Source: Octopus vulgaris (Eukaryota). From it: DNA of 64,000 nt. Location: NCBI GenBank assembly GCA_951406725.2, contig OX597837.1, positions 24,800,001 to 24,864,000 on the forward strand. Reading direction: 5' to 3'. The translations under genes were made by a program, and so were the position numbers. Positions within the stretch are counted from its first letter, which is position 1; each line of letters starts with the position of its first letter. The notes under the pieces were generated by a model, which saw nothing but the letters and a program-made list of their open reading frames with translations, was not told the DNA's origin and ran no database searches. Shown here in pieces: positions 12,642 through 60,316 of this stretch.

Positions 12642-12666
12642 TTTATTTAAAGCAGCAGAAAATTCA

Positions 12667-12718
12667 ACAAAATCTGTTACTCTGAGTTTCTCGTTGCCGT
12701 TCATCAGACAGTTTTTGC
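12667..12718 (-). ncRNA. Minimal type I hammerhead ribozyme motif
   Basis: Minus strand GCAAAAACUGU-CUGAUGA-A CG GCAA CG A-GAA-ACUC A GAGU-A^ACAGAUUUUGU: intact core, GUA triplet, stem I 10 of 11 bp paired, palindromic stem III. Confidence 0.65.
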
Positions 12719-30330: not shown

Positions 30331-30365
30331 GTTTCTGATGAAGAGCTTTGTTCGAAACGTAAAGC
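30331..30365 (+). ncRNA. Minimal hammerhead ribozyme motif in a TA-flanked repeat
   Basis: GUUU-CUGAUGA-A GAGC UUU GUUC-GAAAC GUA^AAGC; stem III reduced to the palindrome ACGU; decayed paralogs at 19661-19695 and 63377-63414. Confidence 0.6.
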
Positions 30366-30495
30366 TACTTTCATTTCCTTCCCTGAGCGTCTGCTAATAC
30401 CTCTTTGTATCGTCTATCTGGATGTTTTGTTGTCCCTTTTTGTATCACCTAGTTGTCCGGGTGTTTTGCGTTCTTGTCCCATTTTGTATTTTATA

Positions 30496-31964: not shown

Positions 31965-34900
31965 GAATAATTAAAATTGCAGACATTGTTTATTTATATC
32001 ATTCCTGTGGCTGGTGATCAGCAGCAAATTCTGCAAGATTTGGTTCTAAATTTGGTAAAAGCCATAAATCTCTAGACTTCCATTCAGTTTCTATTTTTGG
32101 TCAAAATTTGATTTACTTCACTAAAATTTTCTTTCCTCCAGATTAAGTAGGAAAAGCAATAGAAAATAACAATCCACAAATATACAACATTTTAGACTAC
32201 AACCACATTTTTTACACACTTTGATTTATAAAAATCCTCATTATTTCTTCATCATTTTGTAAATCAAAGATGGACTCTCATGTAAATTGATTTGTTATGC
32301 TATTTTGTACAGAAATGGAGGATTTTTTACTCAGTTAGGAATCATCAGTCAAACCAATTCATTAAATTCTGTATCAAAATCTTTCTTCAGTTGTGATAAA
32401 TGTCCACAGCAGGTCCTCAATTTATCATCAGTGAATTATTAGGGTTTTTATAAATGGAAGCTAACAGAACTCCCTTCTGCCAGGGTTTCACTTAATTTAA
32501 TTTTATTGATAAAAATTCTCAACTGCATTCTTTTTAAGTGTCATCATCATCATCATCATCGTTTAGCGTCCGCTTTCCATGCTAGCATGGGTTGGACGGT
32601 TCAACTGGGGTCTGGGAAGCCAGAAGGCTGCACCAGGCCCAGTCTGATCTGGCAATGTTTCTATGGCTGGATGCCCTTTCTGATGCCAACCACTCCATGA
32701 GTGTGGTGGGTGCTTTTTACGTGCCACCCGCACAGGTCGAAGACGGAGCTGGGATATATATATATATCATCATCATCATCATCATCATCGTTTAGCGTCC
32801 GCTTTCCATGCTAGCATGGGTTGGACGGTGCAACTGGGGTCTGAGTAGCCAGAAGGCTGCACCAGGCCCAGTCTGATCTGGCAATGTTTCTGTGGCTGGA
32901 TGCCCTTCCTAACGCCAACCACTCCATGAGTGTAGTGGGTGCTTTTTACATGCCACCGGCACAGGTGCCAGGAGAGGATGGCAACGGCCACGATTGGATG
33001 GTGGTTTTTACGTGCCACCGGCATGGAGGCCAGGCGAGGCTGGCAACGGCCACGTTTGGATGGTTCTCTTATGTGCCACCGGCACTGGTATCACAGCTAC
33101 TTAGATTAAAATTATTTCTTTGCATTAACAAATTCAGGTTGCTTATCTTGTCGTGAATATCAGCTAAGTAAACCCCATTTCTACAAAGTCAGTATCACAT
33201 TTTTTTAATTGCTCATAATGATATATAATTAAAACTTTCATGATGTTGTTGTAAAGTTGGAAAAGGCTTTTCAAACAAGATCCTTTTAACAGCCATGAGG
33301 CCTATCACCAGACCTTAGTGCCTAATGATGCTTCAGAATATTCACGCTGAGAGTTGCTGAAGCATGGAACAAACTGCCGGCATCAGTTGTTAGTTGTCAG
33401 AGCACTGTATCCTTCAAAACTTCCATGCTTTCTGAGATTCGCCAACACTACACCTGATTTTCTCTCCTCCATACACACACAAGCATGTATCTGACTCATA
33501 CATTGTTCGCTTTCCAGACATTTGTACATTACTGCATGTACTTTATACGCACTTTTTGACAAGTTGTGGTGCACCTGAGCACTGTATACAATAATTTCAT
33601 TATTATTATTCTGGGTGGGCACTAATTTGTAATAATGTTAAAGTGGTAGTTTTGAAATTAGCGTATCACTGTAAATCTGAGGGTGCACCACTGAAAAGCG
33701 AGGGCGCAGTGCCACTGAGTGCACCGCCTTAGCGACAGGCATGACAGACATTGAGCTTCAATGTGGAGAAAAAATCACTTGTTAAGGCTAGGCTATCTCT
33801 TCAGATATTCTATAGAATTATAACCAGCAATGATTTCTATAGAACATCAGCAGGAGTGGCTGTGTGGTAAGTAGCTTGCTTACCAACCTCATGGTTCTGG
33901 GTTCAGTCCCACTGCGTGGCACCTTGGGCAACTGTCTTCTATTATAGCCTCGGGCCGACCAAAGTCTTGTGAGTGGATTTCGTAGACGGAAACTGAAAGA
34001 AGCCCGTCGCATATATGTATATATATATATGTATGTGTGTGTGTACATGTTTGTATGTCTGTGTTTGTTCCCTCAATATCGCTTGACAACTGATGCTGGT
34101 GTGTTTATGTCCCCGTAACTTAGCAGTTCGGCATAAGAGACTGATAGAATAAGTACTAGGCTTACAAAGAATAAGTCCTGGGGTCGATTTGCTCAACTAA
34201 AGGCGGTGCTCCAGCATGGCCACAGTCACATGACTGAAGCAAGTAAAAGAGAAAAAGAGTTGAGAACCTTAACAAGTGATGTAAAACACACTGCTAACAC
34301 AGTTGAACATGGTATTAACTTATAAAAACATTTAAAATACTGTATAGTATATTATGGTTGCATAACGAAATACTATATCCCCACAAGTCATTAATGGAGA
34401 AATAATGTTTCCAAATTTTCATCATTTTTATTCATATAATTGCACCATCCGATCGTGGCTGTTGCCAGCCTTGCCTGGCACCTGTGCCGGTGGCATGTAA
34501 AAAGCACCCACTACACTCACGAAGTGGTTGGCGTTAGGAAGGGCATCCAGCTGTAGAAACACTGCCAGATCAGACTGGAGCCTGGTGTAGCCTTCTGGCT
34601 TCCCAGACCCCGGTTGAACCGTCCAACCCATGCTAGCATGGAATGCGGACGTTAAACGATGATGATGATGATAATTGATGAAAGGCAGCCTAGTGTTTAA
34701 GGCCCAGTCTTCAGTTTTGTCTACTATAAATATTACTAAAGCCAGTCCTGAATACAGTTACTCATCACACCACTACTGATTCTTTTGTCTCCATGTTCTC
34801 TTCTATACACCTCATGACACATGGCACTTTGAGGCTGTGTTCTGGCTCCTCATCCCCATAACATTTACCTCTTTTTCTGGCACTACTCTAGTCACCCTGC

Positions 34901-40223: not shown

Positions 40224-41777
40224 CTTCTTCTTCTGATGATGATGATGATGATGATTGTTTCAAATTAATCATGCATTATCATATAGCCCCGTGATTTTGA
40301 TGATGCAATTATTTCTGTTTGGAATGGGTAGCTACGAGAAGCCAGATTTGGCCAGTTTGAAAATAAAAACAGACCAAAAATTTGGGCTAGATATGGCTTG
40401 TTTGAATGCTAAATCATTAATGGCAGAATGATTCAATGAAGTAGATAAATTTAGACCAGTGGCATGTACAAAGCACCTTTCTTACATTGGGCCTCACGGA
40501 GGCAGTGACAAATGACTGAGACCTTTGGCAATATGCCAGGCTTCAGAGGGAAGACTCGTCAAGCCGAGTGAAATCATAGTCCTGGCAGATACTGGTGTCA
40601 TGCAAGAGGCACCCATGCTGGTGGCACGTAAAAGCACCCATTACACACTTGGAGTGGTTGGTGTTAGGAAGAGTATCCAGCCGTAGAAACCATGCCAAAT
40701 CAGCCTGGTGTCTGGTACAGCTCCCTGCCCCAGCTTGCAAGCTCTGGTCAAGCCATTCCACCCATGCCAGCATGGACAACAGATGTTAAACGATGATGAT
40801 GATAATTGGCATGGCACAAATCCTTCCTGACGTAATTTTTCTTCTCATCCTCATATTCATCATCATCACCATCTTCTTAGTACTCATCATCATCATCAGC
40901 TGCAGCAGCAGCAGCAGCAAAATCATCATCATCAGCAGCAGCATCTTCATCATCATCATCTTCTATGTACCCTCAAACCACACCTTGCTGCCTTTAAAAA
41001 AAAAGGGGGCACATTGGCTAATATAGTTGTAGATGCAGTAAATGTTTGCAAAAAAGGACGGGGTGGTCATGGTTGGAACATCTAAATCATATCTCTTTTC
41101 AGTCAGGGATAATCTGGACCTCAACAACGACAACAACAGCGACAAGATTTATGATTGATTTTGATGTTTGCTTTTATTCCTTTTAAGGCCCACATGTCGG
41201 ACCCTTTTTTTCCCCCCCTTTCTCTCCCTCTTTGTCACCTACTTCAACCATTCTCCATCTCCTCCTTCTCATCTTCAGACCCATTCATTCCTCCTCTGCC
41301 TCCCATCATTCCTCTTCGTCTCCTTACAATCCTATTCAACAAACAGTCAACCCTTGCTCTCTCTCTCTCTCCCCACTGAAGTTGACTCATCCAGACAAAA
41401 CGGTCAATCTCAAATGAAATCAATAGAAAACAAGGCAAGGTTGTTAAACAACAACAACAACAACCTGTTTGTAATGACCATTCACCAATACACGGGTGAA
41501 GTGCGGGGGGGGTGGGGGGGAAGTACATTGCAGTAGACGTTGACAAGATAGGGCATGTACATGGAGCTATAAATCTCCCCGACACCAGCGACCACTTATT
41601 CCCTGTCGTACAACAAGCTGCTGCTGCTACTGATTATGATGATGATGATGATGATGATGGTGATTATGAGGAGGAGGAGGAGGAGGAGGAGGATACCGTG
41701 CATTCTGCAGCTCGGACAAGTGTGACGACGACAGGGTGACTTGCCTTTGTTGTTGGTGAATGAGTAGACATTGCAGA

Positions 41778-43660
41778 TGTGTCAGGTGATAACTGAGTGA
41801 CTCAGTGTCTCAGGTGAAAATGAGAAACTCAGAGCGTCAGGTGATAGATGAGTGACTCAGACTGTCAGGCGATAGATGAGTGACTCACAGTGTCGAGGCA
41901 TGGATGAGTGACTCAGGGTGTCAGGTGATGGATGAGTGACTCAGGGTGTCAGGTGATAGATGAGTGACTCACAGCATTGAGGCATGGATGAGTGACTTAG
42001 AGTGTCAGAGAATGGATGAGTGACTCAGTGTGTCAGGTGATAGATGAGTGACTCACAGCATTGAGGCATGGATGAGTGACTTAGAGTGTCAGAGAAAGAA
42101 TGAGTGACTCAGTGTCCCAGGTGATAAGGAGAAACTCAGAGCATCAGGTGATAGATGAGTGACTCAGACTGTCAAGTGATAGATGAGTGACTCAGGGTGT
42201 TGAGGCATGGACGAGTGACTTAGAGTGTCAGAGAAAGGATGAGTGACTCAGTGTCTCAGGTGATAATGAGAAACTCAGAGTGTCAAGTGATAGATGAGTG
42301 ACTCAGACTGTCAGGCGATAGATGAGTGACTCAAGGTGTCGAGGCATGGATGAGTGACTTAGAGTGTCAGAGAAAGGATGAGTGACTCAGTGTCTCAGGT
42401 GATAATGAGAAACTCAGAGTGTCAGGTGATAGATGAGTGACTCACAGCATTGAGGCATGGATGAGTGACTTAGAGTGTCAGGTGATAATAAGAAACTCAG
42501 AGTGTCGGGTGATAGATGAGTGACTCAGACTGTCATTTGATAGATGAGTGACTCACAGTGTCGAGGCATGGATGAGTGACTTAGAGTGTCAGAGAAAGGA
42601 TGAGTGACTCAGTGTCTCAGATGATAATAAGAAACTCAGAGTGTCGGGTGATAGATGAGAGACTCAGACTGTCAGGTGATAGATGAGTGACTCAGGGTGT
42701 CGAGGCATGGATGAGTGACTTAGAGTGTCAGAGAATGGATGAGTGACTCAGTGTGTCAGGTGATAATGAGAAACTCAGAGCATCAGGTGATAGATGAGTG
42801 ACTCAGACTGTCAAGTGATAGATGAGTGACTCAGGGTGTTGAGGCATGGATGAGTGACTTAGAGCGTCAGAGAAAGGATGAGTGACTCAGTGTCCCAGGC
42901 GATAAGGAGAAACTCAGTGCCAGGTGATAGATGAGTGACTCACCGTGTTAAGGCATGGATGAGTGACTTAGAATGTCAGAGAATGGATGAGTGACTCAGT
43001 GTGTCAGGTGATAACTGATTGACTTGGAGTGTCAGGTGATAATGAGAAACTCAGAGTGTCAGGTGATAGATGAGTGACTCAGACTGTCATGTGATAGATG
43101 AGTGACTCACAGTGTTGAGGCATGGATGAGTGACTTAGAGTGTCAGAGAATGGATGAGTGACTCAGTGTGTCAGGTGATAATTGAGTGACTCAGAGGAGT
43201 GTCAGGGGTGGATGAGTGACTCAGTGTCAGGGAATACTGAGTGGCTCGCTTTATCAGGTGATATATGAGTAACTCAGAGTATTAGGGGATAGATAAGTGA
43301 CTCAGAGTGTCTAGTGCTACCTTAGCAACTCAGTGTGTCACATGATAGATGAGTAACTCAGTGTATCAGGTAATAAAGGAATGATTCAGTGTTTCAGGGG
43401 TTTACTGACTCTGAGTGCCAGGTGGTAACTGAGTAACTCAGAGTGTCAGACAATAACTGAGTAACTCAAAATGTCAGGCGATAGATGAGTGACTCAGAGT
43501 GTCAGGAGATGGATGAGCGATTCGGTGTGTCAAGCAATAACTGAGTGACTCACAATATCAGGTGATATATGAGTAACTCAGTGTCAGAGTATAGGTTAGT
43601 GACTCAGAGTGTCAGGGAATGGACAAATGACTCAGTGCATCAGATTGTGAATACTCAGTG
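41778..43660. repeat. 28-bp satellite with a 139-bp five-monomer higher-order repeat; TGAGTGACTCA core
   Basis: Consensus GATAGATGAGTGACTCAGAGTGTCAGGT, ~65 monomers; HOR e.g. 42262 to 42401; no ORF. Confidence 0.95.
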
Positions 43661-46683: not shown

Positions 46684-46732
<49 letters not shown>

Positions 46733-47159
46733 TGTAGGAGTGGCTGTGTGGTAAGTAGCTTGCTTACAAACCACATGGTTCTGGGTGCAGTCCCACTACG
46801 TGGCACCTTGGGCAAGTGTCTTCTACTATAGCCTCGGGCTGACCAAAGCCTTGTGAGTAGATTTCGTAGACGGAAACTGAAAGAAGCCCGTCCTGTATAT
46901 GTATATATGTATATATGTATGTATGTGTGTATATATGTTTGTGTGTGTGTGTTTGTCCCCCCAACATCGCTTGACAACCAATGCTGGTTTGTTTATGTCC
47001 CCCGTAACTTAGCGGTTCAGCAAAAGAGACCGATAGAATAAGTACTAGGCTTCCAAAGAATAAGTCCTGGGGTCGATTTGCTCGACTAAAGGCGATGCTC
47101 CAGCATGGCCACAGTCAAATGACTGAAACAAGTAAAAGAGTAAAAGAGTAAAAAGAGAG

Positions 47160-48703: not shown

Positions 48704-48758
48704 AATGAAGTTCATGGGATAATTGTTTATTTCTTTGTCATCTCTTTTCATATATATA

Positions 48759-48808
<50 letters not shown>

Positions 48809-48874
48809 GGTCCCGGGTTGATTCGGGGTTAACCACAGTAAGTAAGGTACTCAATACATAGCAGAGTAAAATTA

Positions 48875-48998
48875 ATTTATTATATAGAAGGAGCTTCTAC
48901 AGGACTAGTACTGTTTCATTCAAGAGAAATCTTCAGGAAGCCCTGAAGATTTCTCTTGAATGAAACAGTACTAGTCCTGTAGAAGCTCCTTCTATATA

Positions 48999-49004
<6 letters not shown>
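48875..49004. repeat. Perfect 63-bp inverted repeat with a 4-nt loop
   Basis: Arms 48875-48937 and 48942-49004, loop AAGC, no mismatch; the element is flanked by (TA)n. Confidence 0.97.
48893..48941 (-). ncRNA. Type I hammerhead ribozyme motif within the foldback
   Basis: GCUUC-CUGAAGA-U UUC UCUU GAA U-GAA-ACAG UACUAGUC CUGU-A^GAAGC: 5-bp stem I, 4-bp stem III with palindromic ACUAGU loop, U.U at the base of stem II. Confidence 0.65.
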
Positions 49005-49042
<38 letters not shown>

Positions 49043-49463
49043 TTTATCTTTTACTTCAGTCATCAGACTGTGGCTATGCAGGGGCACTGCCTTGAATTTT
49101 TAATCTTTAGTCAAATGAACCGACCTATTACTTCTTTTTTAAACCTGGTATTTATACTATCAGTCTTTTTTGCCGAATTGCTAAGTTACAGACATGCAAA
49201 CACACTAACACCAGTTGTCAAGTGGTGGTGGGGTGACAAACACGAACAGAAACACACACACACATAGATATACACACACATATATATATATATATACAAC
49301 AGCTTTCTTTTAGTTCCCATTTACCAAATACATTCACAAGGATTTAGTTAGCCTGAGGCTATAGTCGAAGACACTCGCCCAAGGTGCCACGCAGGGACTG
49401 AACCTGGAACCATGTAGTTTGGAAGCAAGCTTTTTATCACACAGCCACACATTCATATACCTG

Positions 49464-49502
<39 letters not shown>

Positions 49503-49827: not shown

Positions 49828-50209
49828 GTTTAGCTCCGCATCGACTAGCCTCTGTGCCGGTGGCACGTAACAAACACCATCCGATCGTGGCCGTTGCCAG
49901 CCTCGCCTGGCCTCCATGCTGGTGGCATGTAAAAAGCACCATCCGAGCGTGGCCGTTCGCCAGCCTCGTCTTGCACCTGTGTCGGTGGCACGTAAAAAGC
50001 ACCCACTACACTCACGGAGTGGTTGGCGTTAGGAAGGGCATCTAGCTGTAGAAACACTGCCAGATCAGACTGGGCCTGGTGCAGCCTTCGGGCTTTCCAG
50101 ACCCCAGTTGAACCATCCAACCCATGCTAGCATGGAAAGTGGACGCTAAACGATGATGATGATGATAATGATGATTATGATGATGATGATATAATCCCAA
50201 AAACTTACA

Positions 50210-59485: not shown

Positions 59486-60316
59486 TGGCCTTGGCTGCCA
59501 ATTTGGCCTTGGCTGCCAACTTGGCCTTGGCTGCCAACTTGGCTTTGGCTGCCAACTTGGCCTTGGCTGCCAACATGGTCTTGGCTGCCAACTTGGCCTT
59601 GGCTGCCAACTTGGGTTTGGCTGCCAACTCAGCCTTGGCTGCCAACTTGGCCTTGGCTACCAACTTGGTCTTGGCTGCCAACTTGGCCTTGGCTGCCAAC
59701 TTGGCCTTGGCTGCCAACTTGGTCTTGGCTGCCAACTTGGCCTTGGCTGCCAACTTGGTCTTGGCTGCCAACTTGGCCTTGGCTGCCAACTTGGCCTTGG
59801 CTGCCAACTTGGCCTTGGCTGCCAACTTGGTCTTGGCTGCCAACTTGGCCTTGGCTGCCAACTTGGCTTTGGCTGCCAACTCAGCCTTGGCTGCCAACTT
59901 GGCCTTGGCTACCAACTTGGTCTTGGCTGCCAACTTGGCCTTGGCTGCCAACTTGGCCTTGGCTGCCAACTTGGCCTTGGCTGCCAACTTGGTCTTGGCT
60001 GCCAACTTGGCCTTGGCTGCCAACTTGGCCTTAGCTGCCAACTTGGCCTTGGCTGCCAACTTGGCCTTGGCTGCCAACTTGGCCTTGGCTGCCAACTTGA
60101 CTTTGGCTGCCAACTTGACCTTGGTTGTCAACTTGGCCTTGGCTGCCAACTTGACTTTGGCTGCCAACTTGACCTTGGCTGTCAACTTGGCTGTCAACTT
60201 GGCCTTGGCTGCCAACTTGGTCTTGGCTGCCAACTCGGCCTTGGCTGCCAACTTGGTCTTGGCTGCCAACTTGGCCTTGGCTGCCAACTTGGTCTTGGCT
60301 GCCAACTTGGCCTTGG
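59486..60316. repeat. 18-bp minisatellite TTGGCCTTGGCTGCCAAC, ~46 units
   Basis: Direct reading; variant block repeated at 252 bp (59629/59881). Confidence 0.97.

Follow-up and report, generated by a model that had tools for sequence, protein, structure and literature searches.

A perfect foldback insertion in the Octopus vulgaris genome derives from a Penelope-like end repeat and turns at a putative transcription start

Introduction

Penelope-like elements (PLEs) are the closest retroelement relatives of telomerase. In L1 twin priming, two target ends prime on one RNA, which results in an inversion that is joined by microhomology and accompanied by a deletion.

An inverted pLTR, a palindrome at the junction and a tail on one side only are known for endonuclease-bearing Penelopes, according to the available parts of two accounts (PMC8557442, PMC3846280). 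The second of these reads the structure as self-priming on an antisense template, with a sense template not excluded. How inverted Penelope ends are built is stated as unresolved in the available parts of PMC3846280, PMC8557442 and PMC11167929. For Poseidon of Anolis carolinensis, it was reported that both target strands were cut and extended in vitro, that two internal starts bounded the tail, and that uncut RNA was the main substrate; the target was AT-rich and a dimer was predicted (Frangieh et al. 2024, PMC11167929, available part). The Hydra clade is characterised, in the part of PMC8557442 available, by RWK/DKT, CxCX5C, CxxC and CxH, a GIY-YIG without CCHH, and a (TA)n target, and its elements tend to be short (<3 kb), as a tendency and not a strict rule. 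Type I hammerheads with a 6-bp helix I and a palindromic loop 3 have been described in the pLTRs of PLEs, and opposite-strand hammerhead pairs were noted among them (Cervera and de la Pena 2014, PMC4209133, available part). The octopus family presented here shares the first three of these hammerhead features, and shares with the Penelopes of PMC3846280 the head-to-head repeat, the junction palindrome, the one-sided tail and a TATA box in the repeat.

Results

The window, which is the whole stretch of 64,000 nucleotides of contig OX597837.1 (positions 24,800,001 to 24,864,000), contains a 199-bp non-coding insertion that is the end repeat (pLTR) of a Penelope-like retroelement, which is young and carries motifs of the Hydra clade. 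The pLTR was numbered on the minus strand, with +1 at window position 48942, and the features of the locus are as follows.

48750..48805, no strand: (TA)n target microsatellite, tail side (from the sequence)
48806..48874, minus strand: 69-nt tail, pLTR +69 to +137, its end at +137 falling shortly before the ORF in full-length elements
48875..48942, minus strand: tailed arm, the sense pLTR head from +68 back to +1/+2, carrying the hammerhead motif
48892..48942, minus strand: type I hammerhead-like motif (from the sequence and RNA folding)
48942-48937 with 48897-48892, minus strand: stem I, 6 bp (+1 to +6 with +46 to +51)
48936-48930, minus strand: core CUGAAGA (+7 to +13)
48929-48918, minus strand: stem II, weak, with a U.U closing pair and then 3 bp
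48917-48914, minus strand: GAAA
Within the motif, minus strand: stem III, 4 bp, with a palindromic 8-nt loop
Between 48898 and 48897, minus strand: predicted cut (after +45)
48938..48942, minus strand: head-to-head junction, tailed arm to +2 with G at +1, tailless arm from +6
48942..49004, plus strand: tailless inverted arm, +6 to +68, with the hammerhead core and no stem I
49005..49040, no strand: (TA)n target microsatellite, tailless side (from the sequence)

The foldback had been noticed in a sequence-only reading as a perfect 63-bp structure lying between TA repeats. Recomputation gave the same result: the 63-nt arms (48875-48937 and 48942-49004) are 100% complementary, with zero mismatches and a 4-nt loop between them, and (TA)n is present at 48750-48805 and directly past 49004. 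The foldback RNA has a predicted folding energy near -109 kcal/mol, with a z score of about -23 to -24. Four other sequencing runs, compared with the locus, yielded neither a piece that spans it nor a clear empty site; in run X20 one low-depth contig joint connects 48715 to 49066, but the repeats around it make it ambiguous. Elsewhere in the window, the foldback lies between the members of a diverged inverted repeat pair (46692-47057 and 49136-49496, 74-83% complementary and about 2.2 kb apart). Two repeat copies, in which tandem units of 62 nt precede a SINE-like body and (GAT)n, occupy 49838-50170 and 32541-33085, and minisatellites with units of 28 nt and 18 nt lie at 41774-43616 and 59486-60316.

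The 137 nt from +1 to +137, consisting of the hammerhead and the 69-nt tail, form the end repeat of an element that codes for protein. The parent unit comprises a pLTR, an ORF, a microsatellite-rich 3' region of about 2.8 kb and a second pLTR, and it measured 5.1-5.6 kb in seven out of seven cases. In one copy (L041), a 718-residue stop-to-stop frame is open, with YRDD at 352 and VY..YIG at 592-610, so that the RT/GIY-YIG partner element for which a search was made was found and the Penelope origin suggested from the sequence was borne out. The protein carries RIRWR at 41 and DKT at 121, with no DKG, and its homologues have RW[KR] in 117/120 and DK[TS] in 119/120. A CxCX5C linker occurs at 572, and CxxC and CxH at 672 and 700; the GIY-YIG is C-terminal, lacks CCHH and has a single Cys between VY and YIG. 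Of 7,993 sequences scored, 1,084 relatives reached an E value of 1e-20 or below, and the top one was about 40% identical. A Pfam search of the 718-residue protein itself gave no significant domain, and PF01541 is present in some of its homologues.

These motifs, together with a by-eye likeness to the Hydra rows, suggest that the parent is an EN+ Penelope-like element of the Hydra clade, and a pLTR with a hammerhead and insertion into (TA)n were found here as in that clade. Among the closest known systems is Hydra-1_Obim (Craig et al. 2021, PMC8557442, available part), which also has the C-terminal GIY-YIG without CCHH, DKT, RWR in place of RWK, the CxCX5C linker, CxxC, CxH, a hammerhead and a (TA)n target. 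The octopus family is nevertheless separate from Hydra-1_Obim, whose listed hammerhead differs, and its 5.1-5.6 kb units with their microsatellite-rich 3' region exceed the <3 kb of Hydra-clade elements, as does its 69-nt tail the 30-40 nt in that clade (PMC8557442, available part).

Most ORF copies carry 0-5 private changes, so the family was considered young; nine other loci are identical over the 137 nt. Both observations agree with the recent activity proposed earlier. Contigs from runs presumed to be RNA cover the element, a comparison that is blind to transcript starts, strand and level. The element was also present in runs X15, X19 and X20, labelled as other organisms (compared over window 48806-48941), one of which has a diverged upstream region with a TATA-like box at the same distance. 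A non-LTR retrozyme, which consists of non-coding tandem monomers that each bear a hammerhead, was considered and rejected, as no tandem units were found and the pLTR belongs to an element with an ORF.

The 2.8-Gb genome was searched for further copies. The 27-nt core gave 4,062 exact matches, and at 789 loci of this subfamily two cores lie head to head within 24 nt. A looser pattern that includes sister subfamilies gave at least 1,636 head-to-head insertions (306 + 1,316 + 14). Junctions were examined in detail on contig C1 only, for the first 50 foldbacks (100 arms), and the counts avoid an identity-match sample that was biased to copies with G at +1. The 50 junctions comprised 26 different sequences. 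Thirteen were perfect palindromes on AGCT at +1 to +4, and the remainder were trimmed or carried short inserts copied from nearby bases. An assembly or library foldback artefact would be in keeping with a perfect palindrome between simple repeats at a locus without spanning independent reads. It was ruled out, and must be regarded as extremely improbable, because junctions of varied sequence occur at hundreds of loci (789, with 26 distinct among 50), the ends are fixed and asymmetric, and the arms carry independent mutations. Perfect palindromes of this sort in the genome are thus shown to be genuine insertions and not errors of assembly.

The two arms of a foldback end differently. In 48 of the 50 tight foldbacks, an arm ending at +136/+137 was joined to an arm ending mostly at +66 to +72; in the other two, one had a long arm and a short arm aligned noisily into the TA repeat, and one was long/long. 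All 50 had (AT)n or the ORF of the element right past +136/+137. One tailed and one tailless arm were likewise present in 18/18 two-arm loci (L066-L083), and a search for two tailless arms genome-wide returned six hits, one of them real, with a motif that catches only part of the tailless ends. This suggests that reverse transcription begins internally at two sites, +137 and about +68, each primed from a different target strand; in the window, the outer start would lie at 48806 (+137) and the inner at 49004 (+68). Counting against this account, the strict pairing of tailed with tailless needs a coupling.

It is quite improbable that a single strand, either an antisense template or the first cDNA, folded back and was copied into the second arm. 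Such self-priming, proposed in its antisense-template version for rotifer Penelopes (PMC3846280, available part), would agree with the 13 perfect palindromes among 50 junctions and with the haplotype sharing between arms described below. It would also agree with the near-equal long arms of L071-L073, which are compatible with either run-off at a common RNA end or fold-back. However, tailless arms often outreach the tailed arms (in 48 foldbacks the tailless reached further in 17, the tailed in 14, and 17 were equal), which copying of the tailed cDNA could not produce. The tailless arms of L075 and L076 extend 550-870 nt beyond the tailed ones in the 5' direction, into the ORF, which contradicts self-priming as the sole route. 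Lone tailless copies exist too, and they bear the extra G discussed below. As tailless arms can reach further and can occur alone, simple hairpin copying of the first arm does not account for the second.

Two independently primed cDNAs could nonetheless have a common template. At a polymorphism of near 50% frequency, the arms matched in 48 of 49 readable foldbacks, and genome-wide only 14 of 1,636 had arms of mixed haplotype, against about 506 under random pairing; this concordance may be inflated if the variants were active in different periods or if one arm converted the other. At one inverted insertion (L012; G000:C30, 19.978-19.981 Mb), 23-24 of 28-29 differences over about 330 nt are A>G changes on the sense strand, mostly after U or A, and the same in both arms. 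A>G changes with this preference for a preceding U or A are ADAR-like, and L012 is likely an ADAR-hyperedited RNA fixed in DNA, which suggests that RNA of the family sometimes meets ADAR. The sharing of haplotypes and of the L012 changes argues for one template, and the placement of the latter as A>G on the sense strand speaks against self-priming. The shared-editing argument has L012 as its sole locus, a point against the preferred reading: the edited junction motif occurs only there among matching loci genome-wide, and no family-wide A>G excess was seen outside L012 (10 A>G and 20 T>C in ORF copies).

Mapping of the breakpoints across copies upheld the earlier placing of the inversion point at ribozyme stem I. 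Fifty-eight of the 100 arms stop exactly at +1, the first base of stem I, and none passes it in a pattern that would permit several more bases. Of 63 lone copies lying directly against (TA)n, +1 is retained in 31, and 23 begin later or in some other way. An extra G precedes +1 in 23 of the 31 (p about 1e-8 against 0.25); the native base is T and G accounts for 2.6% of the flank. The 23 comprise 12 tailless, 10 tailed and one ORF-linked copy, two of them being a local duplicate, and the G is single in 22. Nine further lone copies have G with a changed +1, and eight have A or T before +1. Inside foldbacks, an extra G was found on 28/32 non-palindromic arms, where a cap copy, a 1-nt snap-back and a generic untemplated base are indistinguishable.

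In this subfamily TATAAA begins at -29, and it does so in 27/30 sister-subfamily copies; the usual position of a TATA box is -31 to -28. The box is kept only among close relatives, so its conservation is weak evidence. An extra G is described in the available part of PMC4038843 as a trace of a copied cap. From the hard stop at +1, the extra G and TATAAA at -29, +1 is probably a capped Pol II transcription start.

It is unlikely that, with two primed cDNAs as before, the stop at +1 is instead set by the ribozyme or an RNP, with 5'-to-3' trimming that halts at stem I and a G that is untemplated or a 1-nt snap-back. The coincidence of +1 with the first base of stem I would be explained, the templated inserts show that snap-back happens at these ends, and long copies prove that templates extending past +1 exist. 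On the other side stand the single G in 22/23 cases, the nine lone copies with G and a changed +1, TATAAA at -29, and the prediction that stem I is not maintained in the 137-nt RNA. Splicing at an AG on +1/+2, as a 3' splice site, was rejected as the cause of the stop, since the arms keep the AG.

Templates past +1 do count against a capped start as the whole account. All of the 18 best-matching ORF-linked pLTRs retain at least 35 nt upstream of +1, TATA box included, so their templates passed +1; these would be read-through or circular RNA, outside the account given by the model itself. Four ORF-linked copies begin at or beside +1 (L010, L096, L215 and L228). In L010 (1638-2700), a 3'-truncated ORF copy is fused directly to the +1 of a short pLTR, as would be expected from a template jump at the 5' end of the RNA.

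Ribozyme-cut RNA was rejected as the main template, because junctions at the cut site are about 1% as common as those at the start site. The turn falls between about +31 and +46 at 77 loci; among 50 of these that were listed, eight have both arms at +44 to +46, three of them at exactly +46 (by eye). In these three foldbacks (G000:C2 62516262, C8 5403448 and C9 105725225), both arms end exactly at the predicted cut, a weak hint of self-cleavage and that cut RNA is sometimes copied. The ribozyme, at whose stem I the inversion point had been placed, is not supported as the cause of that point, which the 5' end of an RNA explains better. In the best explanation the ribozyme is a passenger in foldback formation, with the putative start site falling on its first base, and the case shows that a ribozyme beside an inversion need not cause it.

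The hammerhead core (CUGANGA / GAAA / NUH) and helices I and III are present in the motif, and both helices appear in the MFE of a 52-mer. A stable helix II with a G10.1-C11.1 pair was not found, the 10.1-11.1 pair being U.U with 3 bp beyond it, and an Rfam search gave no hammerhead hit in the window, the foldback or the native element context. Compared with the PLE hammerheads in the available part of PMC4209133, the octopus motif differs in this 3-bp helix II with its U.U closing pair and in its 4-bp helix III, and its opposite-strand pairs meet at the first base of the motif, unlike the pairs of that study. Among the copies listed, N7 and loop II vary and the core is mostly constant. Sister subfamilies (L144-L173 and a further listing) have a CUGAUGA core, a varied loop II and the foldback at the same point; in the young subfamily, an A at core position 7 permits a competing helix. 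Two more motifs resembling a hammerhead core, unrelated in sequence to the family of the foldback, lie in the window at 12666-12707 (minus strand) and 30335-30377 (plus strand), and the loose pattern that finds them also gives chance matches.

A minus-strand hammerhead with the 5' strand of its stem I mostly in the loop had been described from the sequence. Its position was correct, but the bases are native and not a product of the inversion: in full elements the first strand of the ribozyme is directly 3' of the 3' region, so helix I is native. The plus-strand copy is, as had been stated, a core without stem I, since only 2/6 pairs form. By RNA folding, the hammerhead has an energy of -7.4 kcal/mol, and its pairs have a probability of about 0 in the whole foldback and of 0-0.11 in the 137-nt arm, in which they compete with a local hairpin. 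This hairpin (window 48884-48900; L031 2911-2928, pLTR +43 to +59) takes in the cut site together with the 3' strand of helix I, and in longer RNA it is predicted to hold the ribozyme inactive. The foldback is likewise predicted to block ribozyme cleavage on both strands.

The locus had also been suggested to act as a switch, its transcript either cleaving itself or forming a Dicer/ADAR hairpin that silences the family. That function is very unlikely. In its favour, the hairpin has a very high stability, host read-through of about 1,600 copies could supply dsRNA, one hyper-edited insertion exists (L012), and small RNAs have been reported for other Penelopes (PMC3846280, available part). The either/or switch is unsupported, however, because the antisense arm is transcribed first on either strand and the hammerhead stems have a probability of about 0 in the full transcript, the plus copy being without stem I. 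The insertion has no promoter or TATA box, so dsRNA would need host read-through, the L012 edits lie upstream of the pLTR and outside the part that mini-foldbacks contain, and the structure follows from insertion mechanics.

Discussion

Taken as a Penelope end structure, the foldback is of an ordinary kind, and its copies carry an unusually clear mechanistic footprint. The hairpin was probably made when the enzyme of the element cleaved a TA repeat on both strands and used a single capped, uncut sense RNA as the template for two copies. After the two cuts, this RNA would be primed at +137 by one target end and at about +68 by the other. Where priming is at the first pLTR of the RNA, both cDNAs would be short and would run off the cap at +1, and where it is at the last pLTR, long inverted copies would result. 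The 3' ends of the cDNAs would then be joined through short templated inserts or by microhomology, for which AGCT at +1 to +4 is available, being self-complementary. Joining of this kind resembles polymerase-theta-type end joining. L1 twin priming gives an inversion with a deletion, whereas the octopus cDNAs would copy the same 5' segment and give an inverted duplication.

Poseidon, in the available part of PMC11167929, resembles this scheme in its two internal starts bounding the tail, the extension of both strands, the AT-rich target and the use of uncut RNA. It differs in that its starts lie within the ORF, whereas the octopus starts are 5' of the ORF; in that there was no strand bias between starts, unlike the strict tailed/tailless pairing here; and in that its account, as far as available, includes neither a joining of cDNAs nor a stop at the start site. 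The octopus foldbacks also depart from the reading of PMC3846280, in that the turning point coincides with a putative capped sense start and that either arm can be the longer. In the literature covered, no report was found of twin priming, start-site inversion or hammerheads in octopus Penelopes, nor of two-primer formation or a capped start at the turning point of Penelope inversions; Schostak 2008, Evgen'ev and Arkhipova 2005 and several supplements lay outside this scope and may bear on novelty. Inverted Penelope ends were already known, and the cap/start-site footprint at the turning point, found in none of the papers covered, is apparently new.

More tentatively, and with a little less than even confidence, the copies might be read as a fossil record of the full Penelope cycle: a dimeric enzyme, one capped sense RNA, two fixed starts (one per strand), a cap that is read through, and head-to-head joining. 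The footprint bears on the published question of a sense versus an antisense template, and the more than 1,600 young junctions give base-level predictions for the existing anole in vitro system, namely two coupled starts, one RNA, cap run-off and end joining. If the full-cycle reading is true, the question of sense versus antisense would be settled and the inverted pLTR and its tail would be explained. The element would then be turning out perfect hairpins of 200 bp in large numbers, without a promoter, and read-through RNA from these could serve as an ADAR/Dicer substrate directed against its own family.
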